Shown here: positions 22,868 to 48,760 of the stretch, in pieces
Layout: every line of letters begins with the position of its first letter
Numbering within the stretch: position 1 is the first letter of the stretch
Source: Nemertoderma westbladi
Taxonomy: Eukaryota > Animalia > Xenacoelomorpha
Assembly: GCA_032718475.1 (NCBI GenBank)
Contig: JAUCBJ010000013.1
Coordinates: forward strand, 20,428-84,427
Direction: 5' to 3'
DNA length: 64,000 nucleotides
Translations under genes and position numbers: made by a program
The notes under the pieces: model-generated
What the model saw: the letters and a program-made list of their open reading frames with translations, nothing else
What the model was told of the DNA's origin: nothing
The model's database searches: none

Positions 22868-25406
22868 CGAGAAAGGCATTTCCTAAAGGAAATGCAACCA
22901 CGAAGCTAAGGAAAATTAAACAAACGGCCACACTTTGGTTCGTTGCTTATAGCCTAGTTTAGTAGCAATTGCCAATAATTAACTTCTATTCCCATGGAAA
23001 CTAGAGTTCTCTGGAACTGTGGGTTTTACCTTTGAAAAAAGATTCAGTCCAGATTGTGGTTCAGATTATAACACATATACCGAGTTTCAGAAAATATTGT
23101 AGTTTATGTCCAAATTACCGATTTTCTATCAAAATGCATCTGTTTGCAGTGGTTGTCATGGAAACTGAAAAATATAATAATGTAATTCGGATGCAGAATA
23201 AGTCATATAGTGGGGGTAGGTCTTGGTCCCAAGTCATAATACTAGAAAGGCATTTCCTAAAGGAAATGCAACCACGAAGCTAAGGAAAATTAAACAAACG
23301 GCCACAATTTGGTTCGTTGCTTAGCCTAGTTTAGTAGCATTTGCCAATAAATAACTTCTATTCCCATGGAAACTAGAGTTCTCTGGAACTGTTGGTTTTA
23401 CCTTTGAAAAAAGATTCAGTCCAGATTGTTTTTCAGATAACACATCGAGTTTCAGAAAATATTGTAGTTTATGTCCAAATTACAGATTTTCTATCAAAAT
23501 GCATCTGTTTGCAGTGGTTGTCATGGAAACTGAAAAATAGAACAATGTAATTCGGATGCAGAATAAGTCATATAGTGGGGGTAGGTGTTGGTCCCAAGTC
23601 ATAATACTATTAAATTGTGCTTCAAATTATCATTTTATTAATTTTAACATCTGTTTACTCTTGTTGCTATGGTAAATGGATTTTCTAATTAACTTCGAAC
23701 GGCTTGTATATGGACCTTATAGATGAGTTACAAAACCCCAAGTTTATATATATTACAGTTTTGCTAGAAATAGAGTTATCAATATAGACTTGAATGATAT
23801 AGAGTTTAATAAACTACAGTTACCATGGTAACTAAATTTCTGGAATGATTTAAGTTTCACTAAAAGTTCCAACTAGTGGTGCAGATAACACATACCCAGT
23901 TTTGTAAAATTTTATCGCGAAGTCTATGTCCAAATGAATAATTTTTGTATAAAAACATCTGTTTTCGGCTGTTGTCATGGTAACTGAAAAATAGAACAAT
24001 GTAATTCGGATGCAGAATAAGTTATATAGTGGGGGTAGGGGTTGGTCTCAAGTCATAACACCTTGCCCTTAGGCCTCAAATTATCATTTTATAAATTTTA
24101 ACATCTGTTTATCCCGGTTGCCAACGTAACTGGATTTTCTATTTAGCCTCAATCGGATCTGCTATGGACCTTATAGTTGTGTTGCAAAACCCCAAGTTTA
24201 AATCTATTATAGTTTTCCTACAAATAGAGTTATAAATATTGACTTGAAATACATAGACTTTTTTTGAAGTCCGTTGCCATGGAAACCAGATTTTTCCTGG
24301 ATATGAGACCCGGCCCAAAAGATGCGCCTCGCCGAGTAGTATATACATGCAAAATTTCAGGGTACTTTTAAAGGCTAGTTTTTTCGCCTATCAAAAAACC
24401 CCAAATCTGCCTCACACAAGTAAAATAGCCCACTATGAATAGACCATCTCAGCTAAGGAAAATCTTTCTTAGCGAAAGTAGTTGATTTTCCTTAGCTTCG
24501 TGGACTATTAACTTGTGCTTCAAATTATCATTTTATAAATAGTAACATCTGTTTAGTCTTGTTGCTATGGTAACTGTACTTTCTAATTAACCTCAAACGG
24601 CTTGGATGGATATGGAAATTATAGATGAGTTACAAAACCCCAAGTTTATATATATTACAGTTTTGCTAGAAATAGAGTTATCAATATAGACTTGAATGAT
24701 ATAGAGTTTAATAAACTACAGTTACCATGGTAACTAAATTTCTGGAATGATTTAAGTTTCACTAAAAGTTCCAACTAGTGGTGCAGATAACACATACCCA
24801 GTTTTGTAAAATTTTATCGCGAAGTCTATGTCCAAATGAATAATTTTTGTATAAAAACATCTGTTTTCGGCTGTTGTCATGGTAACTGAAAAATAGAACA
24901 ATGTAATTCGGATGCAGAATAAGTTATATAGTAGGGGTAGGGGTTGGTCTCAAGTCATAACACCTTGCCCTTAGGCCTCAAATTATCATTTTATAAATTT
25001 TAACATCTGTTTATCCCGGTTGCCAACGTAACTGGATTTTCTATTTAGCCTCAATCGGATCTGCTATGGACCTTATAGTTGTGTTGCGAAACCCCAAGTT
25101 TAAATCTATTATAGTTTTCCTACAAATAGAGTTATAAATATTGACTTGAAATACATAGACTTTTTTTGAAGTCCGTTGCCATGGAAACCAGATTTTTCCT
25201 GGATATGAGACCCGGCCCAAAAGATGCGCCTCGCCGAGTAGTATATACATGCAAAATTTCAGGGTACTTTTAAAGGCTAGTTTTTTCGCCTATCAAAAAA
25301 CCCCAAATATGCCTCACACAAGTAAAATAGCCCACTATGAATAGACCATCTCAGCTAAGGAAAATCTTTCTTAGCGAAAGTAGTTGATTTTCCTTAGCTT
25401 CGTGGA
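22868..25406 (-). mobile_element. Two nested copies of the same Helitron-type element (inner copy 23242-24504)
   Basis: Same termini as the 8344-13515 cluster. The inner copy interrupts gtcataata|ctattaac of the outer copy. Confidence 0.85.
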
Positions 25407-30250: not shown

Positions 30251-31455
30251 TGTTCACGCTTTCAGACCTTTAGCAGTTTAACCTGCCAAATTTGGGTGTC
30301 TTCTAGATTATAAATCGACTTTAGCCTATGACGAGTATTTGATACACTACATTAGCTGAAGCCAGTCTATGCGCGACCATTCACCCGCTGGATATACCCG
30401 GGAGACTGGATTCGGAAGCTTTGACCTTATTGCGGTGTAGGCCTACTGTATTATTCGACTGATTGTTAATATATATTTTCTGACAAATATTATTCACTTT
30501 CGGGAAATATTAACAGTTCCTTTAGGACGTGGCGCTCTAAATATGTAAACAGAGTTATGACTTACACTAGACACAACGGGATGGCTATGGATTCACGTAT
30601 ATAGCGCATTCTTTAGGAGATGCTTTGTTATCAGTCACAATCATACACACTACTGCACAATGCTGCACACCGATCTGCCGACCTTCACTAATTTTAGTCA
30701 CATATAAAGAGAACAACAACCGACACATGTAGTGCCTATGAAATAGCATTAGATTCACTCCAAAACCAATATAATGTAAGTCGCAATTGCTATATGTAAC
30801 CTGTCTCTTACCTTCAGTATATCAATAAGATTGGGGGTTTTATGATTATTTATCGATATTATCCAAATATAATAATATTCCATCAACTGATATAATTAAT
30901 AACCGACAGTGATTAGCAGTAAAAATGCGGTGTTTGTAGTTGACAATATGATTTGCATTGATATGCAGTGTGTTGAGTTGGTATGGTTTGATTTGTGGTT
31001 TGTTTGATAACAGTTATACGTTTCTATGACCAAAGCCTACTAATGTTTGGCTAAAGCCTGAAACACAGTAATTCCAAAGCCGGTCTTCTGGCTGTGGACA
31101 AAATATACATACTGACTGAATCGCATGAGTTTCTGTATACAATCTCCAACACAGAGTCAAAAAACGCTCTGATTGGTTGACCGAACAAAGAACGAACAAA
31201 GAACAAAGAAATGTTACACGTGGACATATCAGCTGTTAGATGTTGTCATGGTAACTACACTGTATCAAGAGGATTTTGGCTTATTGCGACATAAGATCGC
31301 TAGTTATGTCCGCTAAAGTACACATACAGAAGAAATGGCTTTTTATGTCCACTAAAACACCGGTACAGTAAGGAAACGGCTTTTTATGTCCGTTAAAACA
31401 CCTACAGAGTACTTTGCGGGGAAAATAACTAGCTAGATCCGCAAAAGCCTTTACA
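30251..31455 (-). repeat. LTR (3' LTR in minus orientation)
   Basis: tgttcacgctttcagacc...gcaaaagcctttaca. Confidence 0.9.
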
Positions 31456-33330
31456 CCGCTCCCAGAAAATGGGATTTAATTCTATAAAATATAAAAAATC
31501 ACAGTTTCTAAAATATAAAAATACTCTAAACAGTTAGTTTTTCTTGCGCGGACGGCGTTTTTGGTTGCTTTACTTTGCTTGATTACCGTTATTTAAGCAG
31601 TAGTCCAACTGATATTAAGACCTAATTGTTGTATGACAGGCCTACTATTTATAAATCGGTTTGAGTTGATTTATAATATATATATACCCGTATAATGGGT
31701 TTTGTCAATATTTGAAATAAATGTTATTATTTCTGGGAAGGAGTCACTACACAGAAGCTATGCGCTCTCAGTGAAGTGCTACTTGTTGGACACTAAAACA
31801 AATAATTCTAATTTACCTAAGTTACTTAATACTACAAATTACGTACAATTCAGGGTGAGATTACAATCTCTAAATAAACACAAAAAATTTACACGTACGA
31901 ATTTTTAGGGTAATTTTACAAGAAGTCTACAAACCAGCCTAACAAAGAGTTAGAATATCTGGTTATTACAACGGACAGGGTACTACGGTATTTGAAAATA
32001 ACAAAGCAGTAGTAAATATACTGCGTTGTCCAGATAGGAAAAATACCACCGTCTGACGACTTATAGCCGTATCGCTATAAGTACTACGTTATGTATCACG
32101 GAGTGTTCCTACCTAGAAGTTAATTACCGCGGTCTACCAGAACCAACGTGCCTATTAACCACTTTACAACACAAATATACTGCCTACACACTAATTACCT
32201 TCGGAAAGCACTGTACACTAAACCCTAGATTAGGTACAAGTACTTATACAACAAATAACTAGCAGTTAGAAATACTTGTACAGCTAAAAGAACCACGGTA
32301 TCTGCTGGAGTGACCGGGGCACAAAATCACCAGTCTTTACCTACGCCAAGCAGCCCTGATGTAGTACCGGGGTTAATTTGACTATAACGGTATATATAAC
32401 AAGCACAATTACTGTAGGAATAAACTTGGGGATATGAATGTTGCGAATAATCGCATAAACTCTGAATAATAAATATTACGCTACGCGTACAGACTACTCA
32501 AACAAAATACAGACCAAACGCTGGCAGACTACTATCAAGCCCAATCAAACTACAGTATATGCAGACTCCGAAAGGGTTAGTTAGTATGCGTTCTAACCGA
32601 GTAGTACGACTTATTCTTTCAGGGGGATTTACCTCACAGCACTGGAAGCCCCTACGTTCCTAACTAGTCTTTTATCGGACATACACTCTACACACACCGC
32701 AATCTCTTCAGACCTAACAACAGCCAGACAACAATCCAGCCTACAAATTATCTGAATAAGAAATATTACGCTACCCGTACAGACTACACAAACAAAAATA
32801 CAGACCAAACGCTGGCAGACTACTATCAAGCCTAAACAAACTACAGTATATGCAGACTCCGAAATGGTTAGTTAGTATGCGTTCTAACCGAGTAGTACGA
32901 CTTATTCTTTCGAGGGGATTTACCTCACAGCACTGGAAGCCCCTACGTTCCTAACTAGTACTTTATCGGACATACACTCTACATACACCGCAATCTCTTC
33001 AGACTTAACAACAGTCAGACAACAGTCCAGCCTACAAATTATCTGTACAATCTGAGCAGGCTTACACGTCTTCTGCTTAATATTAACCTACAAGTAAATA
33101 AAACTGACAGAAATAAGTAAAATCTCAATAAATAACCAGGGCTGCAGTCCCTGATTAAATATTAAGGCCTACCGGTATATAATTCTCAAAATCGAATAAT
33201 ACTGCTGTACCTGTACTGCTGTAAGTACCGGTTCGGGTAGTTAGGCAGTCAGGCCTACTAGTTACCGGTCGACCGGTACTTTAGACTGTATTTATTGCCT
33301 ACACTGCAATCAGAACTCAATAACTGTTAT

Positions 33331-34523
33331 TGTTCGCGCTTTCAGACCTTTAGCAGTTAACCTGCCAAATTTGGGTGTCTTCTAGATTATAAATCGACTT
33401 TAGCCTATGACGAGTATTTGATACACTACATTAGCCGAAGCCAGTCTATGCGCGACCATTCACCCGCTGGATATACCCGGGAGACTGGATTCGGAAGCTT
33501 TGACCTTATTGCGGTGTAGGCCTACTGTATTATTCGACTGATTGTTAATATATATTTTCTGACAAATATTATTCACTTTCGGGAAATATTAACAGTTCCT
33601 TTAGGACGTGGCGCTCTAAATATGTAAACAGAGTTATGACTTACACTAGACACAACGGGATGGCTATGGATTCACGTATATAGCGCATTCTTTAGGAGAT
33701 GCTTTGTTATCAGTCACAATCATACACACTACTGCACAATGCTGCACACCGATCTGCCGACCTTCACTAAATTTAGTCACATATAAAGAGAACAACAACC
33801 GACACATGTAGTGCCTATGAAATAGCATTAGATTCACTCCAAAACCAATATAATGTAAGTCGCAATTGCTATATGTAACCTGTCTCTTACCTTCAGTATA
33901 TCAAGAAGATTGGGGGTTTTATGATTATTTATCGATATTATCCAAATATAATAATATTCCATCAACTGATATAATTAATAACCGACAGTGATTAGCAGTA
34001 AAAATGCGGTGTTTGTAGTTGACAATATGATTTGCATTGATATGCAGTGTGTTGAGTTGGTATGGTTTGATTTGTGGTTTGTTTGATAACAGTTATACGT
34101 TTCTATGACCAAAGCCTACTAATGTTTGGCTAAAGCCTGAAACACAGTAATTCCAAAGCCGGTCTTCTGGTTGTGGACAAAATACACATACTGACTGAAT
34201 CGCATGAGTTTCTGTTTACAATCTCCAACACAGAGTCAAAAAACGCTCTGATTGGTTGACCGAACAAAGAACAAAGAAATGTTACACGTGGACATATCAG
34301 CTGTTAGATGTCGTCATGGTAACTACACTGTATCAAGAGGATTTTGGCTTATTGCGACATAAGATCGCTAGTTATGTCCGCTAAAGTACACATACAGAAG
34401 AAATGGCTTTTTATGTCCACTAAAACACCGGTACAGTAAGGAAACGGCTTTTTATGTCCGTTAAAACACCTACAGAGTACTTTGCGGGGAAAATAACTAG
34501 CTAGATCCGCAAAAGCCTTTACA
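33331..34523 (-). repeat. LTR (5' LTR in minus orientation)
   Basis: tgttcgcgctttcagacc...gcaaaagcctttaca; a few substitutions and small indels versus the left copy. Confidence 0.9.
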
Positions 34524-35183: not shown

Positions 35184-36116
35184 CTAATTCCCTAATGTCA
35201 CAGTGTCCGATTGGATACACTTCCTGAACTGCTTTTACTATAGTGCTGGGCTGCGCAAGCCCAATTCAACTAAAAGTTCTAGAGATTTCGCACTGTTGTG
35301 TATCTAAGCAAGATACCGTAGACATTATTGGTCACCCAAACCCAGCAGTATAAAGGCAACCTTGCTTCTGCTGGAGAGTAAAGAAATGGTTGGGTAGTTA
35401 GTGTTCAGCATTGGGAGTTAGTGTGGCGCTCTCCCTTATAGTTATACTGTAGGTAACAGCCAAGAGAGAGAAGAGCCTTCGGGTTCGGGTTGCCTCCGGT
35501 GCGGTGGTTTATGTTTTACACTTTTACCGATCACTTTACTTTAACTGGTAAGTGATACTAAATTTTTTCTTATCCAACACAGTAAAGACTTTATATTATA
35601 ATCATATTGTAAATAAACAGAATTGCTAAGTAAAGTAAATGTAAATTATGGGTCCTACGGTAATTTATTGTGGTAGTGTGTAAAAAAAAGTGAGAATCAA
35701 CATAGTTTAGTGCCACGAGAACCTTGTAGTACAGCGCCGTCGACGGCCCATATTGGTAATCGGTACTTAATTTTTTTATCTGTCATAATTTAACTTTATA
35801 ACTTTATCATTTATATTTGTTAGGCGCTTTTTCCCGTCTTCGACTAACGAAAGATAATACAATGCTTTGCCATTACGGGAAAGGTGTAGGCTACAGGGGC
35901 ACGTTATTTTAACCAAAACAATAAACTAAAGTCAATAGTTACAGTTTTATTTTTGGGAGTAATCAGCTGTTATTTGGGTTGATTTTCACCTGGAGAGGGA
36001 TGAATTTTCTTTGCGTCCAGATCCCCAGTTGGGTATTATTTGTTTACTTTCTCTTTCTAGTTGCTATGTAAACTAGAGAGTGATAAAAAAAATAGAAGAA
36101 CAAATTATTATATATA

Positions 36117-36654
36117 TGTTAGCTTATTCAATCCCGCCAACACCCCATAAAGTTATTAGCCGATAAGCAATATTGGGAGCCACGAGATTGGGCAATTAAC
36201 CAACTCGTGCCATCCCAATGAGAGTGGGAAGGAAGCACACAATAGAGGGTCAGGGGCCAAACCCCTAACCCAAGGAGAACAGGTGGAGTGAACGGGAATA
36301 CTCCACGGGGCGCCAACAAGGGTATTAACCAATCAGAGGGGGGAATGGCATCGATTGAGTAGCAGTAAGGCCACCGTGCAATATAACCAATAACCTATTA
36401 ATCAGTGATTCAGTTATCTCAGTGCAGCAGTGCTAGCGTAGGGTACAGTCAATTAGTTTAGTTAGGGGATCACGGGACTTTAGTTACCGTATCCCGCCTA
36501 CCGTATAATTCACAATATATCTATATCCTATAACCTATTATTATACACCGAACTTCAGAACTCAGTTATCTTTATTTCACTCTTATACACGGCGGGGACG
36601 CGTGGACTAAATACCACATCGGATAAATCGGGATCCCTCCTGGATCCCGTCACA
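36117..36654 (+). repeat. 5' LTR
   Basis: tgttagcttattcaatccc...ggatcccgtcaca; CCAAT box, TATA-like and TCAGTT initiator-like motifs inside. Confidence 0.95.
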
Positions 36655-36733
36655 GTAACTAAAGCCGAGCTGCCGCCCTAGTTAAACTCTAAGAACTGCA
36701 ACCTAGCTAGCCGAATCATCAGCCACAAACGAG

Positions 36734-37756
36734 ATGAGTGAGTCGGGCGAGACACCACCGCGGACCCCGGACGAAGACCTAACGATCCGCGAGGCCGCGA
36801 CCAAACGATACAGGCCCACGACGCCGGAGCCATCGATAACGGGCGAACCGGAAGCACAGGACGAGGAGGGCCTGGAACCCGAAGTCGAGCCAAGAGAGAA
36901 AGAGAGCGAGACGGAGGGAGAAGGAGATGAGTCGACACGGGACGGAGGACGGCGCGCCGATGTCGCCGGCCAGCTACCGGCCGAGGGCGACGAGCGGCCC
37001 ACCGAATCGGTGGGGCCGACGGTGCGACGCCGGACGCGAAGAGACGGAGGAGAGATTAGTACCGATGTCGCCGGCCAGCTACAGGCCGAGGGCGACGGAC
37101 GGCCCACCGGAACGGCGACGGTGGAGCCGCCGGTACGACGTCGGACCCGGAGGGACGGAGGAGAGGTCGGCGACGAGGACGTCGGGGTTTCTGACCGACT
37201 TCGACGGGCCTACAACGCGACCCGGAAGCTGATAAACGACGCCAAGAAGGAAGGGGCGAAGGTAGACGAGGTGAGACTGAGAAAGCGACTAGGTGAGTCG
37301 GATAGACACTTAAATTACCTGATACGTTTTGGGCAGAGAGAACTAGCCGGGGAGAGAGCAAAGGGAATTGCAGGCGAACTGTTTGAACTATGGGAGTGTG
37401 GGAGTATGGGACCTAGCATAGCGTCAGTGTACATAGGGCCATACTTAATCGATGCCCGGGGAGTAAAACCGGTGGGTTGGAGGGGACTCGAAGGGGGCGA
37501 ATCCGAGGTTAACACCGAGGATTCGGCCTCGTCGGTCGGAGAAAGCTCCGGGAGGCGGGGGAAAGTTAGTAGGTCGGGAAGGCGGGGGAAGTCCGTCGTA
37601 ACCGATAAGTCTGTTACATCCTCCGCGAAAGAAAGAGCGGTGAGGAAAGATAGGAGCCGCATACCGTCTCAGCATGGCAGAGCAAGGTCAGAGAGAAATG
37701 AAGGAACGGCTAGAGGAGGGAAGAGTGCGGTTAGAGAGGGAAACGGTATTGCTTAG
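36734..37756 (+). CDS. BEL/Pao element: N-terminal Gag-region ORF (probably frameshift-split from the downstream ORFs)
   Basis: 340-aa ORF starting 80 nt after the LTR. Acidic/charged, overlaps the next ORF; one base removed near 37645 would fuse them. Confidence 0.6.
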   Translation: MSESGETPPRTPDEDLTIREAATKRYRPTTPEPSITGEPEAQDEEGLEPEVEPREKESETEGEGDESTRDGGRRADVAGQLPAEGDERPTESVGPTVRRRTRRDGGEISTDVAGQLQAEGDGRPTGTATVEPPVRRRTRRDGGEVGDEDVGVSDRLRRAYNATRKLINDAKKEGAKVDEVRLRKRLGESDRHLNYLIRFGQRELAGERAKGIAGELFELWECGSMGPSIASVYIGPYLIDARGVKPVGWRGLEGGESEVNTEDSASSVGESSGRRGKVSRSGRRGKSVVTDKSVTSSAKERAVRKDRSRIPSQHGRARSERNEGTARGGKSAVREGNGIA

Positions 37757-39098
37757 AGAAACCGGAGAAAGGGCCGAAAGGGCTTTGAAAAGCCTAAGGG
37801 AGTATGATGAGATAGAGGAAAGGGAGTGTAGGGAGCGTGAAGCGAGAGAGGAAAGGGAACGCAGAGAGCGTGAGGCAAGGGAGGACGAGGAACGCAAGGA
37901 ACGTGAGGCAAAAGGGGAAGAGGAACGCAAGGAACGTGAGGCAAAAAGGGAAAAGGAACGCAAGGAATATGAGACGAGAAAGGAAAAGGAACGCAAAGAG
38001 CGTGAGGCGAGACGAAGGGAGAGCATTAAGAGTGCCGCAGACTCGGCCATCAAGGACACCCAGGAGCGTGAGGGGAAAATGGCAGAGAGTGAAAAAGAGC
38101 GCAAGGAATTAGAGAAACGGCAGAGTGAGTTTGCGGGAAATATAATTAGAGGGGAGCACGAGTTGGAATACGTGCGAGCGACGCCGTCTGAAACCGGGGC
38201 CGGCTCGAGTATTTTTGAGGAGCCGAGGGCCGTAGATATATTTATTAATACTCCACTGACAGGGACCGCACGACAGACCCAAAACTGGTGCGACCGTACG
38301 GGCGGGGGGGGGGGTAATAATAATGGTACAGTAGACGTTGTTGATATTAATAGTACCGTATGGGATAACGCTAATCAAACCTTTATTACAGGAAATACTT
38401 TGCCTAGTGGTAGTAATTTAAATTTAAATCAGAACAATCCCAGTGTTAATGTAGAAAATAATCCTAATATTGATGTAGTTACGCAAAATAATTCAAATAA
38501 TCAAAATAATAACTCGAATTCGGACCTACAAAATAACTTAAATAACGCGATTACACAGAATAATTCGAATAATTCAAATAATGATCTTAGCCCGAATTTA
38601 CAAAATAATTCAGATAACGTAGTCGCGCAGAATAATACAAATGATTTTGTTTCAAATGAGCAAATTAATTCCGTTTCCAATATGGGTGCTATTAATGTAA
38701 ACACGTCGGGCCTACGTAACCAGGGAGCAGAGGGCCTGGTAGGCCACGTAGTTAGTAGACAGGGAGCAGAGGGCCTGGTAGGCCACGTAGTTAGTAGACA
38801 GGGAGCAGAGGGCCTGGTAGGCCACGTAGTTAGTAGACAGGGAGCAGAGGGCCTGGTAGGCCACGTAGTTAGTAGACAGGGAGCAGAGGGCCTGGTAGGC
38901 CGCGTAGTTGGTAGGCAGGGAGTAGAGGGCCTGGAAGGCCACGCAATAGCAGAGGGAGAGGCGGGGGTGAACAGACCCGACTGTGGTAGGGTTGATGTGT
39001 CGACTAGAGAGATATATAGTGGCGGGGCGAGAGGTAGCGAAGTAGAATGTAGCGGGTGGGGGGGGGGGGGCTACAAGGGCCCCACAACAGAGAGTTAG
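37674..39098 (+). CDS. BEL/Pao element: Gag coiled-coil/Asn-rich segment
   Basis: 474 aa with E/R/K coiled-coil repeats, an N-rich tract and 13-aa repeats. Ends just after a long poly-G run. Confidence 0.65.
   Translation: MAEQGQREMKERLEEGRVRLERETVLLRETGERAERALKSLREYDEIEERECREREAREERERREREAREDEERKEREAKGEEERKEREAKREKERKEYETRKEKERKEREARRRESIKSAADSAIKDTQEREGKMAESEKERKELEKRQSEFAGNIIRGEHELEYVRATPSETGAGSSIFEEPRAVDIFINTPLTGTARQTQNWCDRTGGGGGNNNGTVDVVDINSTVWDNANQTFITGNTLPSGSNLNLNQNNPSVNVENNPNIDVVTQNNSNNQNNNSNSDLQNNLNNAITQNNSNNSNNDLSPNLQNNSDNVVAQNNTNDFVSNEQINSVSNMGAINVNTSGLRNQGAEGLVGHVVSRQGAEGLVGHVVSRQGAEGLVGHVVSRQGAEGLVGHVVSRQGAEGLVGRVVGRQGVEGLEGHAIAEGEAGVNRPDCGRVDVSTREIYSGGARGSEVECSGWGGGGYKGPTTES
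38721..38943 (+). repeat. Coding 39-bp tandem repeat (QGAEGLVGHVVSR, about 6 copies)
   Basis: cagggagcagagggcctggtaggccacgtagttagtaga repeated. Confidence 0.95.
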
Positions 39099-39222
39099 CG
39101 GCGAGAGGGGGGGGGCAGAGAGTGTCCCACAGCCGTCAGCGGACAATGCGAGGGCCGAACAAGGTAAACCGCAACAACCGGCGACGGAAAGTAATAGGGG
39201 GATTGCGAGTATCCCCAGCGAC

Positions 39223-40056
39223 GTGCGATCGAGCAGAGAAAGACAGGTTGACGTCGCGGGAGGGCAGACGGAGCGTCGAGCCCGATCAGAGGAGGAAAGA
39301 AGAACAGTGGGGTTTAACCGGGAGGTCGACGAGAGATCTCGTGAGCGGGAATATTCCACTGATAGGAGAAGAGAGGAAGACAGTAGTAGAAGTATCGCCG
39401 CAAACGATAGAAGAGCGAGGACGGACAGCGAGCCGTCGGTAGTCGAGATGAGAACGGAGAGTCAGTGGGGTCGGACTCCGGGAGATTGCCGTCGCCCCGG
39501 AGGGATGCGATCCGGTGAGACGCATTACACGCCGAGAGAGGGGTACGCGATGTACCGGTACGAAGATGAAAACAGTGGAGAGGGGGGTCGAAGAGAAACT
39601 TTCCGACGGAATATACCTACCGATCGAGAATACGGTAGCCGCGGGGAGGATTATTCGAGAAGAATAAACTTCGATCCCGAGCAACACATGCAGACTGTAG
39701 GGCATACTGTAGGTCTTACTGCACATACCGTAGGCCATACTGAGAGAGGCAATGTAGGCGATAGGATAGCGCGGACAACGGGATTAAACCCGGAAGTCGC
39801 GGAATACATACCGGCGAGTAGGCCAGAAGCTGATAGGCCTATACCGGTACCAGCACAGCAGTATGACTACAGCATGCAGGGACATAACATATACCCAGGG
39901 GAGGGGGGAATTATTGCGGATAGGTGTATGGGCCCCAACATATTAACATCAACCCCAGTACCAGACATACCGGTGGGGGGGGGGGACAGGGTGACATTCC
40001 CCCATCACAATATCAACAATATACCCCGACAGGAACAAGAACAACGAGACCCCTAG
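39223..40056 (+). CDS. BEL/Pao element: Gag linker segment between poly-G runs
   Basis: The frame is open from the G-run at about 39110 to past the G-run at about 39980; includes LNPEVAEYIP. Confidence 0.55.
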   Translation: MRSSRERQVDVAGGQTERRARSEEERRTVGFNREVDERSREREYSTDRRREEDSSRSIAANDRRARTDSEPSVVEMRTESQWGRTPGDCRRPGGMRSGETHYTPREGYAMYRYEDENSGEGGRRETFRRNIPTDREYGSRGEDYSRRINFDPEQHMQTVGHTVGLTAHTVGHTERGNVGDRIARTTGLNPEVAEYIPASRPEADRPIPVPAQQYDYSMQGHNIYPGEGGIIADRCMGPNILTSTPVPDIPVGGGDRVTFPHHNINNIPRQEQEQRDP

Positions 40057-42710
40057 ATGAAAACAGGTCGTGTGATACAGACATATGGAGGGGGCCGCTA
40101 CCCCCGATGACATATCCGAGTCAGAGAAGATCAAGAAATAGGACGGACGAACCGCACCAGACAGGGGAAACTATACAGCACCCGTCGAATCCATTAGAAG
40201 CGCAGGCAATGGGGATGGCCACGTTGATCGATGCGTTGAAAACGAGGATCGAATTACCACCCGTGGAACCGTTCAAATTCGATGGGAGCAGGCCGGAAGA
40301 ATACTTACAGTTTCGGCGAATGTATAGTAACGAAATACTAACAAAAAACTTGACGCAGGCGGAGTGCCTAAAGTATCTACAAGTATACACGGGAGGCCCA
40401 GCATACGACATCGTGAGGCAATATCAGGGAATAGAGGGCGGCTTCACGACAGCATGGCGGGCACTGGATAGGGAATACGGGCACCCGGCCAAGATCATCA
40501 GGCAAACGCTGAGAGGCATAACATCGGGTGGCCTACAGGATAATCCCGTTAGCATTAAGACGTTTGCTAACAAAGTCGAGAAGGCGCTGATCGTGCTGAA
40601 GACGCTAGACGCGCCGTACGAGCTCAACGCGTCCAATAACATCACCACGATAGCGCAGGCACTACCGAGCTGGCTGCGCAACAAATGGAGGAAGATCGCT
40701 TTCTCCACCCGAGACAAGAAGGGTGCGGAACCAGGTTTAGAAGAAATGTCAAACTTCTTAAACTACGAGGCTGAACTAATAACTGACCCAGTCTATAGTG
40801 AAGATAGCCTGGGAAAGGGACCAAAGACAGATCACTACAGGCCCAAACCAGAGCACAATACATCAAACGCATTGCCGAGGCTCAGACAATCATTGCCATA
40901 CGCAGCGACGCAGGGGACTGCAAGTCCACAGGCAAACGAAGATAAGACAACATCAAGGGACGGACAGGGGAACAATAACAACATGAATAAACATAACCCC
41001 AGTACGTCCAGTAGGCCAAACCCAGTCAATAAGAATAGTAGGGACTTTGGTACGAATATAACTGCGATACGCAATGCATTGTATAAAGAGGGCTACGACC
41101 CAAAGAGCAAATGCCAGTTACACGCAAATGCGCTTCATAAAACTATGAATTGCAGGTACTGGCAGGCGCTACCGAGGCAAGACCAGATAGATTACGCGTC
41201 GAGCAATAAAATCTGCTCGCGATGTGTGAAGAGTGGACACAAGGCCAGGGAATGCCAAGAGAAGCCGGTCAAGTTTGGCCAAAGGAGAGGCCAGACGATG
41301 GCAACGAGCACAGTAGGGGCGAAGAAGAGAGGAACAGTGCTACTTGGAGTAGTACCAGTACGAGTGATCGGGGAAGGCAATCGATCAGTAACAACACTAA
41401 TGCTGGTTGATAGTGGAGCTGCCTTCACATTAGTTGAGGAATGGGTGGCCGAAGAAATAGGGTTGAGAACGATGCCAAGCAGGATGGCGGTAACAACCAT
41501 CTCTAGCAAAGATGAGATCCTAGAGATGAGGACAGGACGGTGCGCAATTGCAGCAGTAGCACCAGGATGCGATTATGGGGCAACCATCGACCCCATCCAA
41601 GTAATAGAGTCAATCAACATCAATGCCAGGCGGCCAACCAACATCGAGGTCGAGCAATACAAATTCCTGGACGACATTGACTTCTCGATCCCAGACGTGG
41701 ACGTTAGGAAGGTATCCATCATAGTAGGAATGGACTGCCCGACGGCCCACGAAAGAATGCAAACGGTCTTCGGCGAAGACAAGCAGAGCGACCCGGTGGC
41801 CATACTAACACCATTCGGGTGGACACTGACAGGCCCAATTAAGAGTAATATACCATTCAATGTGTCCGAGAGTTCAGGATGCATGGTGCCAGGAACCGAC
41901 GAGATAGAGGAGAGGTCAGAGATGGGCAATAGTGGTAGACAGCTAGAAGTAGAAGCAACACCAAGAGAGTGGGCGGAGGAGAATGGTATGGATGCAGAAG
42001 ATCTGGAGACGATGGGTTGGAATAAGGGTCCCAGCAAGTATCGGTATGGAGATGGAGAGGAGCGGACGGTGGAGTGTCGGGAGGACAAACCGGAGAAGTG
42101 TCCGGTGGAGTGTCCAGAGGAGCGTCCGGAAGAGACGCCGGTCCGGTTGAGAGGCATACCGACAAGGGGGAAGCCGAGTAAGAATACAAGATGGAAAGGG
42201 AGAAGATGTGAGACGATCAGACCAGGGGCAGAGAAGCCCATGAATAAACATATGGTGGACAAAGGAGGCGGGAGAGTAGGAGGCGTGCTGCGTACGCACG
42301 CGGAACTGACAGAGTGCGAGGGGGCATTACATGCGCAGACATCGTGTATACCGAAGGACGAACGGGGGTCGTTGAAGCCTTTAATGCCAGCACACATATT
42401 AAGGGGGAGGCCAGCAGAGATGGCATCTAAGATTAAGGAGAAGAACAGGGGCGGCATTATACCGCCGGGTGACACGTTGAAGGGTGGCACTTTGCCGCCA
42501 AGGGACGACCACGAGATCAGAAACATAAATAAGAGACAGCATTTGCCAAAACAGGAGAAAAGACCACCTATCGAATTGACAAGGAGAGCGGAGCGAAGAA
42601 TTAGAGAACCTATAGGGCGGCAGTGGGAGAGTTGCCTGCTGGAGGAATCACCCCTTGGGTCGCTGAGTTGTCCAACAGGTTGGACTAGGATGGAAGAGTT
42701 AGATCCGTAA
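39924..42710 (+). CDS. BEL/Pao Gag (DUF1759-like), zinc knuckles and aspartic protease; RT, RNase H and integrase core absent
   Basis: PFKFDGSRPEEYLQF...LKYLQVYTGGPA...AWRALDREYG; CQLHANALHKTMNC and CSRCVKSGHKAREC; LVDSGAAFTLV; IIVGMD...PVAILTPFGWTLTGP. Only a PLMPAHILRG relic of the post-integrase region remains. Confidence 0.9.
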   Translation: MYGPQHININPSTRHTGGGGGQGDIPPSQYQQYTPTGTRTTRPLDENRSCDTDIWRGPLPPMTYPSQRRSRNRTDEPHQTGETIQHPSNPLEAQAMGMATLIDALKTRIELPPVEPFKFDGSRPEEYLQFRRMYSNEILTKNLTQAECLKYLQVYTGGPAYDIVRQYQGIEGGFTTAWRALDREYGHPAKIIRQTLRGITSGGLQDNPVSIKTFANKVEKALIVLKTLDAPYELNASNNITTIAQALPSWLRNKWRKIAFSTRDKKGAEPGLEEMSNFLNYEAELITDPVYSEDSLGKGPKTDHYRPKPEHNTSNALPRLRQSLPYAATQGTASPQANEDKTTSRDGQGNNNNMNKHNPSTSSRPNPVNKNSRDFGTNITAIRNALYKEGYDPKSKCQLHANALHKTMNCRYWQALPRQDQIDYASSNKICSRCVKSGHKARECQEKPVKFGQRRGQTMATSTVGAKKRGTVLLGVVPVRVIGEGNRSVTTLMLVDSGAAFTLVEEWVAEEIGLRTMPSRMAVTTISSKDEILEMRTGRCAIAAVAPGCDYGATIDPIQVIESININARRPTNIEVEQYKFLDDIDFSIPDVDVRKVSIIVGMDCPTAHERMQTVFGEDKQSDPVAILTPFGWTLTGPIKSNIPFNVSESSGCMVPGTDEIEERSEMGNSGRQLEVEATPREWAEENGMDAEDLETMGWNKGPSKYRYGDGEERTVECREDKPEKCPVECPEERPEETPVRLRGIPTRGKPSKNTRWKGRRCETIRPGAEKPMNKHMVDKGGGRVGGVLRTHAELTECEGALHAQTSCIPKDERGSLKPLMPAHILRGRPAEMASKIKEKNRGGIIPPGDTLKGGTLPPRDDHEIRNINKRQHLPKQEKRPPIELTRRAERRIREPIGRQWESCLLEESPLGSLSCPTGWTRMEELDP

Positions 42711-42840
42711 AAGGTGCGGGCAGAGGTTTTACCTGTCTCTTAGAAGGAGCACCTTAGTCCAAGTTTTGGACTGAGGGGGGTGGGGTTGAGGGCGAGACGC
42801 CCTTCCCACACAAATAAAATAAAATAAAAATAAAAATAAA

Positions 42841-43530
42841 AGTTAGTTAGTTAGTAGGTACGTAGTACCTAGAGTTAGTTAGTCAGTAGGTACGTAGTAC
42901 CTAGAGTTAGTTAGTTAGTAGGTACGTAGTACCTAGAGTTAGTTAGTTAGAGGGTACGTAGTACCGATAGTTAGAGAGTTAGAGGGTACGTAGTACCAAT
43001 AGTTAGTTAGAGTTAGAGGGTACGTAGTACCGATAGTTAGAGAGTTAGTAGGTACGTAGTACCTAGTTAGAGTTAGAGGGTACGTAGTACCGATAGTTAG
43101 AGAGTTAGAGGGTACGTAGTACCAATAGTTAGTTAGAGTTAGTAGGTACGTAGTACCTAGTTAGAGTTAGAGTTAGAGGGTACGTAGTACCGATAGTTAG
43201 AGAGTTAGAGGGTACGTAGTACCAATAGTTAGTTAGAGTTAGAGGGTACGTAGTACCGATAGTTAGAGAGTTAGTAGGTACGTAGTACCTAGTTAGAGTT
43301 AGAGTTAGAGGGTACGTAGTACCAATAGTTAGTTAGAGTTAGAGGGTACGTAGTACCGATGGTTAGAGAGTTAGTAGGTACGTAGTACCTAGTTAGAGTT
43401 AGAGTTAGAGGGTACGTAGTACCAATAGTTAGTTAGAGTTAGTAGGTACGTAGTACCTAGTTAGAGTTAGAGTTAGTAGGTACGTGGTACCTAGTTAGAG
43501 TTAGAGTTAGGGGGTACGTAGTACCATTAG
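42841..43530 (+). repeat. Tandem array of about 21 hairpin cores GGTAC-GTA-GTACC separated by variable (AGTT/AG)n linkers
   Basis: Counted by eye; unit length about 28-38 bp. Confidence 0.95.
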
Positions 43531-44042
43531 TTAGAGAGAGAGAGAGAGTGAGAGATAAAAGGGATATATAGGATATAGATATTAGTTAGCAGTAAGTAGA
43601 GTTAGTAGCGAGAGGGGGGCATATGAGTGCAGCTGGATAAATCGTGTGGCCACACGACGCATACTGCTGTACTGCATAGGCCCACTGAGTAGGCCAGAAT
43701 ATGGATCAGAGAGAGAATAGAATAAATCCATAGGCAGTAGTAAGTAGTAGGACAGTAGAATCAAAGCAAAATAAACAAATAAATAGAATAGGGCTAAAAT
43801 CGGAAAATAGTGGTAACACAAGGAAAGTCGTTCTAGAACATAATAAAAGTAACAGACGGAAATTGTAAATTAGGCTGATTTACTAGCTCCGAAATTAATT
43901 AGATTAAATTAAGCTTGAAAGGCGCAGTTAAGTAGAAAAGTAGGCCATTATCGAACTGTACGAAACATCTTAAATACTTCACTCATCTGTATTGCGCCTT
44001 GGTAAGGCACCACCCTGCAGGTGAGCGAGTGTAGTGTTCGGA

Positions 44043-46577
44043 ATGGCGAGTAAGCTGATCAGGAAGAGAAAGGCGGAGTCAGGAGGAAAAGAAATATTGG
44101 TGGATTTCACCGAAAGACACCCGGAGGAGAAGACGAGAGGATACTACGAGAGGTTGGAAAGGGGTCATGCGGCACGAGCGCTGCAGGATCACTTCCGGGA
44201 GGCGCACGAACAGCGGTTGGTCGGGACCTACGGGACGCCGTCGCTGGACAACGCGATCTTCCAACACTTCCACTACGTGGTGAAAGGAGACGAGGCGAAG
44301 TTCGGGATTCCGAAGTATCCGAGGGAATCGCCGAGGAAGGACTGGAAAAGATTCATAGAGTCTGTCAACAGAGGAGGATATATGATCCTAGATGACGAGG
44401 GAACCGTGGAAGACAAAGCGGGTTCGAGACGAGGAACGGCAGGGTCGGCCAGGACCATACTCTTGCATTTGGCAGCGCCAAATGGGGACATCTTCTTATT
44501 CGACCTAGGGACGTATGGGAAGAAGGACGGGCCGAAATTAGACCGATTGCCGAAAGCGGTACAAGTCTTAGTAAGAGAAAAGTCGACGACGAAAGTGGGA
44601 TCGGCGATTCGCGAGGACGCGGAGAGGATCATCGGTCCGGACGCCACCAACCTCCTGGATATGCAGAAAGTCTTTATGGCTATGACGGCACCGGATGGAT
44701 TGGGGGTGGTCGAGAACACAGGCCAATGCGGGGCGGTGGCGATGGGCCAATTATTGGGGCTCGTATGCCACAAACCAATGGATTGGGGGAAGTTTAGGGA
44801 AGAATACGGAGCAGAACTAGCGAACTCGCTGAAGTGGGGAGCGAGACCGGGAAAGCAGGAGGTATATCAGTTTCGCAGAGGAGCGATAAAGGTATATCAG
44901 AAGCGATATATCCTGCAGGAGGACTGGATGATGATAAGTTTGCTTAACTTATTCATGACCGTAGTTATCGAAAGGGAACCAGGGGCATTTCTGTTATCGG
45001 GATCACCCCTAAGCTACAGGAGAGCCTTTAAAGTGGCCTTTGACGGTCTGGTAGACCACCCGGGGCTGAAGGGCGAGTCGGTGTACTACAACAGCCGACA
45101 TCTGGTAGACGGGGAGACAGATACACCGTATCAGAGATGGGAGCAGCTAGAGGCGGACAGACGAGAAGCAAAGCGACTGGAAGAAGTCGCTAGACGGGAG
45201 AGGATAGAAGCAGAGGAGAGGGAAGAGGAGGCCAGGGCACAGAGTTACGGCTTCGAGGAACAGGCGGGCCTAGACGAACTTCATTGGACTTCGTCAGGGA
45301 GTTCGGGGGAGTCTCTAGGGCGAGAATTGGGATGGACGGTGGGATCGCCGAAACAGTCGACGTCGGGGTTGCACACGATGCCCATACCAGCGGGCGCCGA
45401 GGGCGACCAACCGCCAAGGAAGTTAAGGGAGCTAGAGGGATGGAGAGCTACGGGCGAGAGCCAAGGCGGGAAGGGACATAGTGGATCCATCGGGATACCG
45501 GGATTGGAGACACTACCAGAAGAGGAGGACGACGACGACGAGTTCGGAGAGATGCCGCCCATCGAGAGGATAGGCCACTCGGACACGGACTGGGTTGGCG
45601 GAAGGGTGGTGACGGCCAGTGGGGCGAGGGCCTTCTGGAACAGATCCGGCAAGCGGACCTGGGTGCACGAGGAGCCGGCGATGGATTTCGCGGGGAGCAC
45701 CATCAGGTTGGGCGAGCAACCGGGAACGGCACCACGGATAGTATTCGGGGAGACGATGCCCGAGAGGGGCGGAGAGATAGACGTAAACAGGGAGAGCAAC
45801 GTAGAGAAGTTCGCCTACCAGCGACTCCATAGACCGCGGAGATCGCTTGGGACGAAAGACGAGGTGGGACGCGAGACATTGGTACTCGGCTGCGACTACT
45901 GTGGGAGACAGACCCATCGGGAAAGCAGCTGCCTATACCGGTTCCAACGGGGAACCTTTTGTCTCTACTGCAGAGAACCAAGTCACAGGATGGGGGCGTG
46001 TCCACGGTTGCATAACCGATGTCCAAAGTGCCACTTTCGGGGACACTACGGACGCGAGTGCGACTGGATGAGCGACGAGGAGAAGTTCACGAGGTTCGAG
46101 GAGTGGGCCGACGTCGGGGCCATGACGCGCCAGCGCATGAAGGCCCAAGAGTTCAAGTGGGGTTTCTTCCTTATAAACCAGGAGACCCACATGGAAATCA
46201 TAAAGCGGAGGTTACCGTTTACCTATCAAGAGGTAGCTACGGCGGCATCGTTCGCCGGAGTTATGAACACGCAACGGCACCTGGACAGGTGGACACCAGA
46301 GAACCGGAGGGAGTTTAGGGATTTCTTGGCGGAACACGTACCAAAGGCAATGAAAATGATCCTATGGGACGCCACACGAGGGAGACAACCAGGCCATTCT
46401 GAGGGGCCACCGGCGAAGCGGTATCGGGCTTTAATAACACCAGCGCCCAAGGAGCCGACGACCGGGATCAGCAAGGAAGTGGCAGCGAAGGTCCGGAAGC
46501 AGAAAGCGGATGATGCCAGAGGAGCGGTGATAACCAAGAAACGGGCCAGGGAAGAGGACGTGAGGAGGAACAGATAA
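44043..46577 (+). CDS. Retrotransposon cargo ORF: DEDD(y)-like 3'-5' exonuclease domain (WRN/Mut-7/EXD-like) plus three CCHC zinc knuckles
   Basis: Uninterrupted 844 aa from ATG 44043. ILDDEG (ExoI), LLHLAAPNGDIFLFDL, LPKAVQVLV...KVGSAIREDAE (ExoII), LLDMQ, LLG..HKP, Q-x-x-YILQED (ExoIII-like). Knuckles CDYCGRQTHRESSC, CLYCREPSHRMGAC and CPKCHFRGHYGREC. Confidence 0.8.
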   Translation: MASKLIRKRKAESGGKEILVDFTERHPEEKTRGYYERLERGHAARALQDHFREAHEQRLVGTYGTPSLDNAIFQHFHYVVKGDEAKFGIPKYPRESPRKDWKRFIESVNRGGYMILDDEGTVEDKAGSRRGTAGSARTILLHLAAPNGDIFLFDLGTYGKKDGPKLDRLPKAVQVLVREKSTTKVGSAIREDAERIIGPDATNLLDMQKVFMAMTAPDGLGVVENTGQCGAVAMGQLLGLVCHKPMDWGKFREEYGAELANSLKWGARPGKQEVYQFRRGAIKVYQKRYILQEDWMMISLLNLFMTVVIEREPGAFLLSGSPLSYRRAFKVAFDGLVDHPGLKGESVYYNSRHLVDGETDTPYQRWEQLEADRREAKRLEEVARRERIEAEEREEEARAQSYGFEEQAGLDELHWTSSGSSGESLGRELGWTVGSPKQSTSGLHTMPIPAGAEGDQPPRKLRELEGWRATGESQGGKGHSGSIGIPGLETLPEEEDDDDEFGEMPPIERIGHSDTDWVGGRVVTASGARAFWNRSGKRTWVHEEPAMDFAGSTIRLGEQPGTAPRIVFGETMPERGGEIDVNRESNVEKFAYQRLHRPRRSLGTKDEVGRETLVLGCDYCGRQTHRESSCLYRFQRGTFCLYCREPSHRMGACPRLHNRCPKCHFRGHYGRECDWMSDEEKFTRFEEWADVGAMTRQRMKAQEFKWGFFLINQETHMEIIKRRLPFTYQEVATAASFAGVMNTQRHLDRWTPENRREFRDFLAEHVPKAMKMILWDATRGRQPGHSEGPPAKRYRALITPAPKEPTTGISKEVAAKVRKQKADDARGAVITKKRAREEDVRRNR

Positions 46578-47289
46578 GTTCCCGGAGACGAGGGAATGAG
46601 ACTGAGACTGGGAAGTGGTGCGCCTGGAAGGCGCCGCATGTAACGTACGAACTATTAAGTATAAATTTTATTAATGCAAATAATCATATAAGTGCAATTT
46701 GTATGTACGTACGTAGTGATTAGCAGTAAAATACATACGTTTGGAGTAAGTACTATAGTCATACAACCTTTCTCAATTAGCTACTGGGACTGGGGGACAA
46801 TTGACTATGGCACTATGGACGAGACAACTGACAATTTCACGCTTCTTGAGTGCGACGGCACGAGAGAGGGGGGGAGGTTCGTCAGGAGAGATAAAACAGT
46901 CAAAGTGGAGTTGAGAATCGGAATAAGAGTGCGAAGTGCGGAGAGAGTGCGAACGCAATTCTAGTGTGGGGGGGGGGGGGAGAATGAGAGGCTGAGTAAG
47001 GGACGAGGAGGTCCGGGGGTATGAGAGAGTTAGGGTGAGAGTGAAGGTGAGATAGGGCGAAAATGTTGGGGAAACAAAAGTTGCGTGGGAGGTGAGCGCG
47101 ACCGGCCCGACATGAGACGCCAGGCACACAGGGTAGCGATATCATACCCATAGGGGGCGGCCTGGAAAGCCGACCCCGAGAGAAAAGAATTCCACCCCAC
47201 ACCCGATACTAGATCGGGATCCAGCGGGATTGTAACGCACTTTTTTGGTTGATGCTATCTTCTTACCGGGAAGATAGCATGGGGGGGAG

Positions 47290-47827
47290 TGTTAGCTTAT
47301 TCAATCCCGCCAACACCCCATAAAGTTATTAGCCGATAAGCAATATTGGGAGCCACGAGATTGGGCAATTAACCAACTCGTGCCATCCCAATGAGAGTGG
47401 GAAGGAAGCACACAATAGAGGGTCAGGGGCCAAACCCCTAACCCAAGGAGAACAGGTGGAGTGAACGGGAATACTCCACGGGGCGCCAACAAGGGTATTA
47501 ACCAATCAGAGGGGGGAATGGCATCGATTGAGTAGCAGTAAGGCCACCGTGCAATATAACCAATAACCTATTAATCAGTGATTCAGTTATCTCAGTGCAG
47601 CAGTGCTAGCGTAGGGTACAGTCAATTAGTTTAGTTAGGGGATCACGGGACTTTAGTTACCGTATCCCGCCTACCGTATAATTCACAATATATCTATATC
47701 CTATAACCTATTATTATACACCGAACTTCAGAACTCAGTTATCTTTATTTCACTCTTATACACGGCGGGGACGCGTGGACTAAATACCACATCGGATAAA
47801 TCGGGATCCCTCCTGGATCCCGTCACA
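47290..47827 (+). repeat. 3' LTR
   Basis: Same length and apparently the same sequence as 36117-36654; preceded by a hairpin and the PPT. Confidence 0.95.
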
Positions 47828-47839
47828 ATATAATAGACG

Positions 47840-47912
47840 AGCATCCGTGGTGTAGTGGTTAGCATACCTGAACGTTTATCGGGAGACGCGGGTTCGATCG
47901 AATTCATTTTTT
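47840..47912 (+). mobile_element. tRNA-derived SINE head / tRNA pseudogene
   Basis: gcatccgtggtgtagtggttagca (A-box) ... gggttcgatc (B-box); no 3' acceptor stem. Confidence 0.55.
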
Positions 47913-48042
47913 CCACTCCATTTGCTATAGAGTTGGATAATCCTTAGTCCTGTTTAATTACTTAATAATATTATATATAATATAATTATATTTAGACTGG
48001 ACACTTACTTAATCGTTAATATTAATTTATATATTATTTCAG

Positions 48043-48240
48043 ACCGAGAGGAATTTACCCAATGGTTGTCATGGCAACCTTTTACAGAGAATGAAGCGGA
48101 AATCAGACGCGAAAACCGGTTTAGGTACATTTGTAAGGCGACGTATAAACCCAGTGAAGGTGTATCCGTAACATTGAGTGAAGGAAGTAGACAGTGGAGG
48201 GATTGTGCCACCGCGATTAGTTCAACATGTATAGACCCCA
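48043..48240 (+). CDS. Sema5: Semaphorin-5-like gene, exon: atypical TSP1 repeat 4
   Basis: ttcag|AC...CCC A|gttagt. EFTQWLSWQP...RENRFRYICKA...QWRDC, matching the Sema5-diagnostic E-x-RFRY-x-CKA segment. Confidence 0.88.
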
Positions 48241-48487
48241 GTTAGTAATCATTAGTGTTTATAGAATGCTTAAGTATCAAAATGTCTATATATTTTGTTA
48301 TATATTTATTTAATTTTGTAATATTAACGAATTATTGATGGTAATTCGAGGTGTTTGTTATTATATGTAGGAACTGAATCAGATTCCACGCTGTTGAGAC
48401 CCAGTAAGGTTGAAACGCGTGACACGTGGTTTGGTGAGATATGATATTTTAATGAATTTCCCTTTATTTAAAAAATATTTAAAAAAT

Positions 48488-48760
48488 AGGATCGGCATGC
48501 TGCATTGCAGCTGCATTTTTAAGAATGCTGTGCCGGCTTGTCGACAAAATTGCGCCGCCACAACTCCCTATCACCCATGACATTTGGTAGATCATCCGCA
48601 TCTTTAAGGCCAGTGTCCTTTAAGATGCGTCTCAAGAAAGTCATGGGCTGTCCACCATGCTTATTCACTCCATGAGGCTGCCAAAATACAAGATTATGCA
48701 CTGGCTGGTCCTCACGGCGAAAGCAATGTCCTGCAAAGCGGAGGCGATTTTGTTTTAACA
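48488..48760 (-). mobile_element. 3' fragment of RTE-like LINE (family of 28830-29800)
   Basis: QNRLRFAGHCFRREDQPVHNLV...NFVDKPAQHS, nearly identical to ORF 29136-29756. Confidence 0.85.

Follow-up and report, generated by a model that had tools for sequence, protein, structure and literature searches.

How could an LTR retrotransposon begin reverse transcription when no tRNA primer binding site (PBS) follows its 5' LTR? The question is raised by element 1, which lies in a 64,000-nt stretch of Nemertoderma westbladi DNA (the window, i.e., the whole stretch that was analysed). The Belpaoviridae, one of five Ortervirales families, are described by the ICTV as primed by host tRNA, with an 18-nt PBS for tRNA-Arg or tRNA-Gly, and their replication is called 'poorly understood' (PMC8742986). 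Self-priming has been reported, according to the available parts of the sources, for Tf1/Tf2 of S. pombe, Tj1 of S. japonicus and the Tf1/sushi group of Ty3/gypsy chromoviruses (PMC7175516, PMC10085805, PMC4600332). In Tf1 the RNA's initial 11 bases anneal, and cleavage by RNase H falls between bases 11 and 12 (PMC7175516, available part). For the plant elements Tcn1 (Ty3/gypsy) and TAR/Houba/Osr-1 (Ty1/copia), self-priming has been predicted from sequence (PMC6317226, available part). A term search of the main BEL/Pao survey found none of the words primer, PBS and tRNA (PMC3118150), and we found no report of self-priming in BEL/Pao in a literature search whose coverage did not extend to subscription journals and Repbase reports.

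Results

Composition and classification of element 1

By its identical LTRs and 5-bp target site duplication (TSD), element 1 is a young, recently inserted BEL/Pao element (Table 1). Its gag-pro ORF matches DUF1759 (PF03564) in Pfam at E=5e-11, and the aspartic protease match is sub-threshold. At E<=0.001 this ORF has 2,980 relatives, which are BEL/Pao polyproteins; the 150 matches listed show 23-36% identity. Peptidase_A17 was present in five of the eight representative matches scanned, the other three being pieces of 267-581 aa, and one Peptidase_A17-bearing protein (P0001) gave a pairwise E=5e-15 against the gag-pro of element 1. A word-based protein search with gag-pro gave 0 matches, or one with the region option, and no relative was found among viral contigs by protein or by alignment search. 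A DUF1759 Gag, a BEL-type protease, Pao polyproteins as nearest proteins, TG...CA LTRs, a short TSD and a polypurine tract (PPT) are thus all found in element 1. Membership of the Tf1/sushi group, with its Ty3/gypsy chromovirus polyprotein, was ruled out, as the gag-protease is that of BEL/Pao. A quick tree built from 62 protease rows puts element 1 on a long branch that lacks support and does not settle its placement.

At the place where reverse transcriptase (RT) would come next, gag-pro is followed by unrelated sequence, and the five element 1 ORFs scanned gave no Pfam match to RT, RNase H or integrase. Without these enzymes element 1 would need a helper, and by its gene content it is a non-autonomous BEL/Pao derivative, not a complete family member.

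Within the host, the element 1 family is highly repeated and variable: over 36117-37700, 5,126 contigs of run X1 and 2,312 of run X3 could be aligned. For many X1/X3 contigs the alignment is confined to 36587-36663, and some leave out 36505-36586 or 36664-36750. A tRNA-like sequence with A-box/B-box-like words and one stem-loop (47841-47900, +) starts 13 nt past the 3' LTR; it was not called by ARAGORN or Rfam and is single copy in the window. The available text on Tj1 places its insertion sites 5-11 bp upstream of tRNA genes, but one insertion of element 1 near a tRNA-like sequence does not demonstrate targeting.

Table 1. Positions of the features of elements 1 and 2 in the window.
Feature	Position	Strand	Remarks
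Element 1, non-autonomous BEL/Pao LTR retrotransposon, 11.7 kb	36117..47827	+	Identical LTRs, flanks, Pfam
TSD of element 1, ATATA	36112-36116 / 47828-47832		Flank comparison
5' LTR of element 1 (TGT...ACA), 538 bp	36117..36654	+	Without AATAAA/ATTAAA
Promoter-like arrangement in element 1 LTR	36327..36415	+	CCAAT box, TATAA, TCAGTT; predicted start ~36412
5' arm of predicted 13-bp outer helix	36455..36467	+	Pairs with 36676-36688
Candidate self-primer of element 1, CTTTAGTTAC	36478..36487	+	Exact complement of PBS
Predicted inner stem just 3' of primer	36492..36498	+	Pairs with 36591-36597; 1/300 shuffles
Predicted 8-bp U5 hairpin	36629..36649	+	Ends 5 nt before PBS; variants in loop, none in stem
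PBS position of element 1, GTAACTAAAG	36655..36664	+	Offset 0 from LTR end, no TGG
Three overlapping low-complexity open frames 5' of gag	36707..40056	+	No Pfam match
Gag (DUF1759) - zinc knuckle - aspartic protease ORF (gag-pro)	39924..42710	+	
Tandem array, 32-34-nt units	42809..43563	+	Between gag-pro and cargo ORF
Cargo ORF	44043..46577	+	Possible DEDD-type 3'-5' exonuclease domain and Cys/His cluster
Polypurine tract of element 1 (G-rich)	47281..47289	+	Abuts 3' LTR
3' LTR of element 1	47290..47827	+	Identical to 5' LTR over 538 bp
Element 2, non-coding LTR element	30251..34523	-	Orientation inferred
Element 2 LTRs, 1.2 kb	33331-34523 and 30251-31455	-	98.3% identical; TSD CGGGA
Element 2 PBS position, ATAACAGTTAT	33320..33330	-	Offset 0, no TGG
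Element 2 candidate self-primer	34086..34096	-	Exact 11-nt complement, 755 nt before LTR end

The PBS position is complementary to the element's own LTR

An earlier note on this DNA had claimed that element 1 lacks a tRNA PBS and that the exact reverse complement of its PBS lies within the LTR, and our analysis confirmed both observations. The 5' LTR ends in ...CCGTCACA at 36654 and is directly followed by GTAACTAAAG; the first TGG comes 219 nt downstream of the LTR, with none within 218 nt. All tRNA 3' 12-mers in the eLife table (189/189) end in CCA, so the PBS for a whole tRNA would start with TGG, and the 18-nt tRNA-Arg/tRNA-Gly site of the ICTV description is not found in element 1. ARAGORN found 0 tRNA genes in the whole window, and Rfam gave 0 matches in 35500-48500. 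CTTTAGTTAC is the exact reverse complement of GTAACTAAAG, and a second copy lies in the 3' LTR (47651-47660).

The matching stretch, at offset 0, comprises exactly 10 nt and no more. Such a match arose in 7 of 20,000 dinucleotide shuffles of the LTR, or in 26 of 20,000 when offsets 0-3 were allowed, and 14 of the 10,626 internal 10-mers of element 1 have a complement in the LTR. In a harsher control, arbitrary CA-ending 538-nt stretches of the repeat-rich window, 68 of 7,589 (0.9%) matched. As the primer 3' base C36487 pairs with G36655, the polarity is right for priming, and extension would begin on the last LTR base. Element 1 thereby falls within the published definition of predicted self-priming, i.e., at least 10 nt of LTR complement starting 0-5 nt past the LTR (PMC6317226, available part). 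In elements 1 and 2, extending the complement over a splice junction gave nothing of at least 8 nt at offset 0 and did not improve on the contiguous match. The exact LTR-end/PBS pattern of element 1 had 0 matches in metagenome contigs.

A second LTR element in the window

Element 2 has no extended similarity to element 1, and its longest open frame is 80 aa. Its minus-strand sense is suggested by a G-rich tract before one LTR and by the 5' part of the LTR, which contains tandem repeats and CCAAT. Its 11-nt match arose by chance in 12 of 10,000 shuffles and 76 of 7,523 window controls. Its PBS is close to a palindrome; in unconstrained folds the primer helix has a probability of 0.0, and forcing it costs 1.7-2.4 kcal/mol. 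An intron between primer and PBS could be indicated by a strong donor-like word in the LTR (sense position 634). A 17-nt exact match of opposite sense (E=0.012) links the 3' untranslated region of element 1 (46715-46731) with the element 2 LTR (~33986-34002).

PBS and candidate primer covary among BEL/Pao relatives

Relatives were fetched with an alignment of 23 long gag-pro matches, which gave 79 metagenome loci (from the best 80 of 574 confirmed), and 19 genome-bin loci brought the set to 98. These were sampled by likeness to element 1 and say nothing on BEL/Pao as a whole. The 19 genome-bin stretches (L080-L098) lie in contigs filed as bacterial/archaeal genomes and are probably animal host DNA. 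For the main test we used only the 12 of the 98 loci whose direct repeat fixes the LTR 3' end, leaving out the other 86; together with elements 1 and 2 they form a matrix of 14 elements, with the L009/L010 cross pairs excluded as one family. Every PBS was scored against every LTR, contiguously or across [ACT]AG and GT[AG]AG, at offsets 0-3 and over at least 10 nt. This rule was set after the pattern had been seen, and the swapped control was scored under the identical rule.

The PBS matched its own LTR over at least 10 nt in 13 of the 14 elements, vs 0 of 180 swapped pairs. PBS and primer thus covary across related families, the pattern to which the earlier note had pointed as a check. Among the relatives, 11 of 12 loci (10 of 11 families, L009/L010 counting as one) match their own LTR over 10-15 nt at offsets 0-3. 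The match is contiguous in three (L003, L033, L056) and found only across a GT-AG intron junction in eight, and primer lengths cluster at 10-12 nt. The exception, L087, has a TGG (tRNA) PBS at offset 0 and no self-match, while L096 has TGG at offset 1 and yet an 11-nt self-match. The 13 matched PBSs comprise 12 different sequences. In the family nearest to element 1 by score (L001-L003, ~31% protein identity), a contiguous 10-mer lies 187-192 nt before the LTR end; half of its positions (5 of 10) differ from those in element 1, and all pairs are preserved.

With GT as the sole requirement, junction matches of 11-15 nt emerged in eight of the 16 cases run, all on GT[AG]AG donors (L010, L024, L072, L081, L082, L090, L091, L096); L002, L024 and L082 had entered these 16 after a scan for the best site. 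A blind scan of 54 loci, which made no use of the LTR end, found 13 matches, compared with 3 for the reverse strand and 0.4 for shuffles; the matches in L013, L043, L044, L066 and the L090 row have unconfirmed LTR ends and were left out.

Collectively, the LTR-complementary PBS is real and lineage-wide within the sample. Since related elements pair likewise with different letters, this group likely primes with its own RNA. The proposal of self-priming in a BEL-derived element is thus supported by both the BEL/Pao gag-protease and the cross-family covariation. Element 1 would be an intron-less version of the junction design seen in most relatives with a defined LTR end.

As a separate observation, an 11-15-nt PBS complement present only across a GT-AG LTR intron was noted in L009, L010, L024, L034, L036, L072, L081, L082, L086, L090, L091 and L096. 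The LTR introns of junction-type relatives measure 75-1022 nt where lengths are given.

Predicted RNA fold and variation within the family

In fold predictions, the primer/PBS helix of element 1 has pair probabilities of 0.5-1.0 over 12 fragment choices, save for one terminal pair, and the RNA folded from 36412 is stabler than 100 of 100 shuffles (z -3.1). A 13-bp outer helix arose in 7 of 5,000 shuffles and 22 of 1,588 window controls. Stems resembling those of the Tf1 pretzel were also predicted (U5-end stem, 7/300 shuffles; leader stem, 12/300), and their long-range versions compete for 36590-36597. The full form of the three-duplex structure of Tf1 was not clearly reproduced in element 1 and is not general in the relatives. 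The outer helix is significant in two of 15 elements and was rejected as a general feature of the relatives.

Variation was taken from contigs of four DNA runs (at most three samples, and one run may be the source of the window) over 36456-36700, which gave 32 substitution rows at 30 positions. Confidently paired positions vary less often than others (3/56 vs 27/131, p=0.009), a contrast that weakens to p=0.058 when limited to 36500-36664. The three variable paired positions are 36617, 36659 and 36664, the latter two within the PBS. The change C>T at 36659 keeps a G-U pair, and the tenth, outermost pair is lost by G>T at 36664 (~45% of depth in X1). The primer site has no listed variant to match these two PBS changes; it lies 22-31 nt from the edge of the compared stretch, in a part where diverged subfamilies are unaligned, and compensating changes within the family may have been missed.

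Promoter-like signals and the probable position of the primer in the RNA

The element 1 LTR contains a CCAAT box (36327-36338), TATAA at 36382 and TCAGTT at 36410-36415. We take the latter two to be a TATA and an initiator-like motif, with a predicted start at ~36412. They are 30 nt apart counted to the A and 66 nt upstream of the 10-mer, and the 90 nt before the 10-mer contain no TATA-like word. The outer helix requires RNA from 36455. In the junction-type relatives L024 and L081, TATATA lies 56 and 49 nt upstream of the primer, respectively. Of 11 evaluable relatives, 9 have a poly(A) signal downstream of the primer, which places the primer inside the transcribed R region, and in the eight relatives whose complement spans an intron an upstream exon is required; in elements 1 and 2 no AATAAA/ATTAAA follows the primer. 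The primer is therefore probably internal to the element 1 RNA (within R) and does not form its first bases as in Tf1. The suggestion of the earlier note that the primer is a Tf1-like RNA 5' end was not supported by the upstream TATAA-TCAGTT pair, the outer helix and the intron-spanning complements.

A start further downstream, at TATAA 36529 and a second initiator-like motif (36562-36567), is disfavoured, as both carry variants. In the possible RNA run X5, no contig covers 36498-36889.

The cargo ORF

A feature-based Atlas search with the cargo ORF gave one hit (0.90, 150/256 features), in a cluster with PF01612 on 50% of its members. Neither Pfam nor PDB gave a match, a word-based protein search gave 0 matches, and a single-sequence AlphaFold2 model was uninformative (pLDDT 33). 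A possible identity as an exonuclease is a lead only. Bdelloid Juno/Vesta LTR retrotransposons encode a DEDDy exonuclease as ORF3, which in the authors' suggestion processes the element RNA at its 3' end (PMC5408684, available part). Element 1 likewise has an extra 3' ORF with a possible 3'-5' exonuclease likeness, but Juno/Vesta are of Ty3/gypsy type while element 1 is BEL/Pao, and the two are likened by description, not homology. The Juno/Vesta paper mentions neither PBS nor self-priming (PMC5408684).

None of the 98 related loci encodes the cargo ORF (best tblastn E 0.43), so it is not required for self-priming. The gap between pol and the 3' LTR measures only 114-169 nt in six self-matching relatives whose LTR start is visible. 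It is 128-169 nt in L002, L010, L024, L081, L082 and L090 and 114 nt in L096, i.e., in 7 of 13 rows, with L082 and L024 added post hoc. The idea in the earlier note that a cargo exonuclease trims the primer thus finds no support, given its absence from the related loci and an exonuclease identity that hangs on one Atlas hit. A splice-site-like word lies at 44019, just before the cargo ORF.

Other features of the window

At 58354-59309 (-) lies a broken BEL gag remnant (DUF1759) without a visible LTR. It is preceded by TGGCGAT (59309-59303), a 7-nt fit to the tRNA-Arg(ACG) 3' end of the eLife table, and the same genome may also contain a tRNA-primed BEL family. Complex satellite arrays lie at 8300-13300, 22900-25200 and 56000-56900, with a 454-nt period and repeated GTTGYYATGGWAAC words, and a 13/26-nt period. 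Two RVT_1-bearing open frames (2215-2853 and 50968-52287, +) are unrelated to element 1 by tblastn.

Discussion

Given the observed complementarity, position, polarity and cross-family covariation, element 1 very probably primes itself in some form. To one specific form we give about even chances, namely that a 10-nt LTR stretch of its own RNA pairs with the PBS by fold-back and, after a cut by a helper, primes minus-strand DNA in place of a tRNA. Transcription would start upstream of the 10-mer, probably near 36412. The 5' RNA would then fold back and place 36478-36487 on the PBS, flanked by the predicted inner stem, U5 hairpin and 13-bp outer helix. RT/RNase H provided in trans by an autonomous BEL/Pao helper would, by analogy with Tf1, cut just 3' of C36487 and free a 3'-OH. 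Copying of the 167 nt from 36654 back to 36488 would yield strong-stop DNA, which would then move to the 3' LTR. Among the points against this reading is the following: if the 5' intron is spliced, the relatives must leave the 3' copy unspliced to inherit the intron.

Intron inheritance might be explained by a separate spliced primer RNA and an unspliced template, as would be the case if the LTR-encoded primer came from an RNA 3' end. Its source could be the 3' LTR copy or, in trans, a short LTR transcript that is spliced and polyadenylated, with a 3'-5' exonuclease trimming the RNA to the duplex. A poly(A) signal begins no more than 33 nt from the primer 3' end in 7 of the 11 evaluable relatives, and element 1 has its possible DEDD-type ORF. 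However, in intron-less elements the PBS would already be occupied by the 5' copy (pair probability up to 1.0), the relatives lack the cargo ORF and would depend on a host enzyme, and elements 1 and 2 have no AATAAA/ATTAAA after the primer. We consider a primer from an RNA 3' end unlikely. Alternatively, transcription might start at or a few bases from 36478, making the 10-mer the capped 5' end as in Tf1. The primer lengths are near the 11 nt of Tf1, a CCAAT-like word lies at 36387, 91 nt upstream of the 10-mer, and the modelled helix also forms with RNA starting at 36478; TTAGTT inside the 10-mer, presumably an initiator-like word, counts on the same side. Against such a start stand the promoter words further upstream and the lack of a TATA-like motif close by, as well as the outer helix with its longer RNA. 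Junction-type relatives would also need a first exon of 3-6 nt, and have TATATA further upstream. A start at the 10-mer is accordingly judged unlikely.

The pairing could also be a regulatory structure (PBS masking, packaging or translation), with a host RNA such as a tRNA half as the actual primer. Half-tRNA priming is described for Ty1/copia lineages (PMC6317226, available part), and the G-U-tolerant and pair-breaking PBS variants indicate some slack. Nevertheless, each of the different PBS sequences tracks its own LTR, so one host RNA cannot serve all of them, and the sole TGG element without a self-match is L087. A tRNA-copied PBS would, moreover, be drawn back to the tRNA sequence every cycle. 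We find a purely regulatory pairing quite unlikely. Chance complementarity in an AT-rich, repeat-rich LTR is hardly credible: although ~1% of arbitrary CA-ending window stretches match likewise and the element 2 PBS is nearly a palindrome, both LTR elements in the window (2/2) match, and so do own pairs but not swapped pairs in the matrix.

A broader scenario, improbable in our judgement, would be that a widespread BEL/Pao lineage swapped the tRNA for an internal LTR-encoded primer RNA. This RNA would be assembled by the spliceosome in most families and 3'-trimmed, possibly as a short trans LTR transcript, rather than released by a Tf1-type cut, and element 1 would be an intron-less descendant with a captured trimming nuclease.

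Judged by its sequence signature, element 1 would work like Tf1 self-priming without being a Tf1/sushi element, and the position of the primer and the frequent dependence on splicing set it apart. Like Tf1/Tf2, Tj1 and the Tf1/sushi group, it has no tRNA PBS and carries, just past the LTR CA, a complement to the LTR, of ~11 nt in the available descriptions (PMC7175516, PMC10085805, PMC4600332). Extra duplexes around the primer helix are likewise known from the Tf1/sushi group, and those of element 1 are a prediction. Unlike this group, element 1 belongs to the BEL/Pao superfamily. Its primer is probably internal, whereas Tf1 uses its first 11 bases; eight relatives form the primer across an intron, and the two flanking duplexes of the Tf1 pretzel were not clearly reproduced in the modelled RNA. 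The Tf1 system has been shown experimentally in the available reports, while element 1 is known here from sequence alone. With Tcn1 and TAR/Houba/Osr-1 it shares the sequence criterion and the status of a sequence-based prediction, but those are plant elements of other superfamilies, with no splice-junction form described in the available part of the source (PMC6317226). Like the Belpaoviridae (Semotivirus), element 1 has a DUF1759 Gag, a zinc knuckle, a BEL/Pao protease, TG...CA LTRs, a PPT and an animal host; unlike the ICTV description, it is without a tRNA PBS, RT, RNase H and integrase (PMC8742986).

If functional, this arrangement would mean that tRNA-independent priming arose again, in animals and in a third superfamily, with a primer that is internal and often dependent on host splicing. 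With self-priming, silencing by tRNA fragments would presumably lose its target as well. Reverse transcription would be tied to RNA processing, and BEL elements that PBS-based annotation scores as PBS-less would be accounted for.
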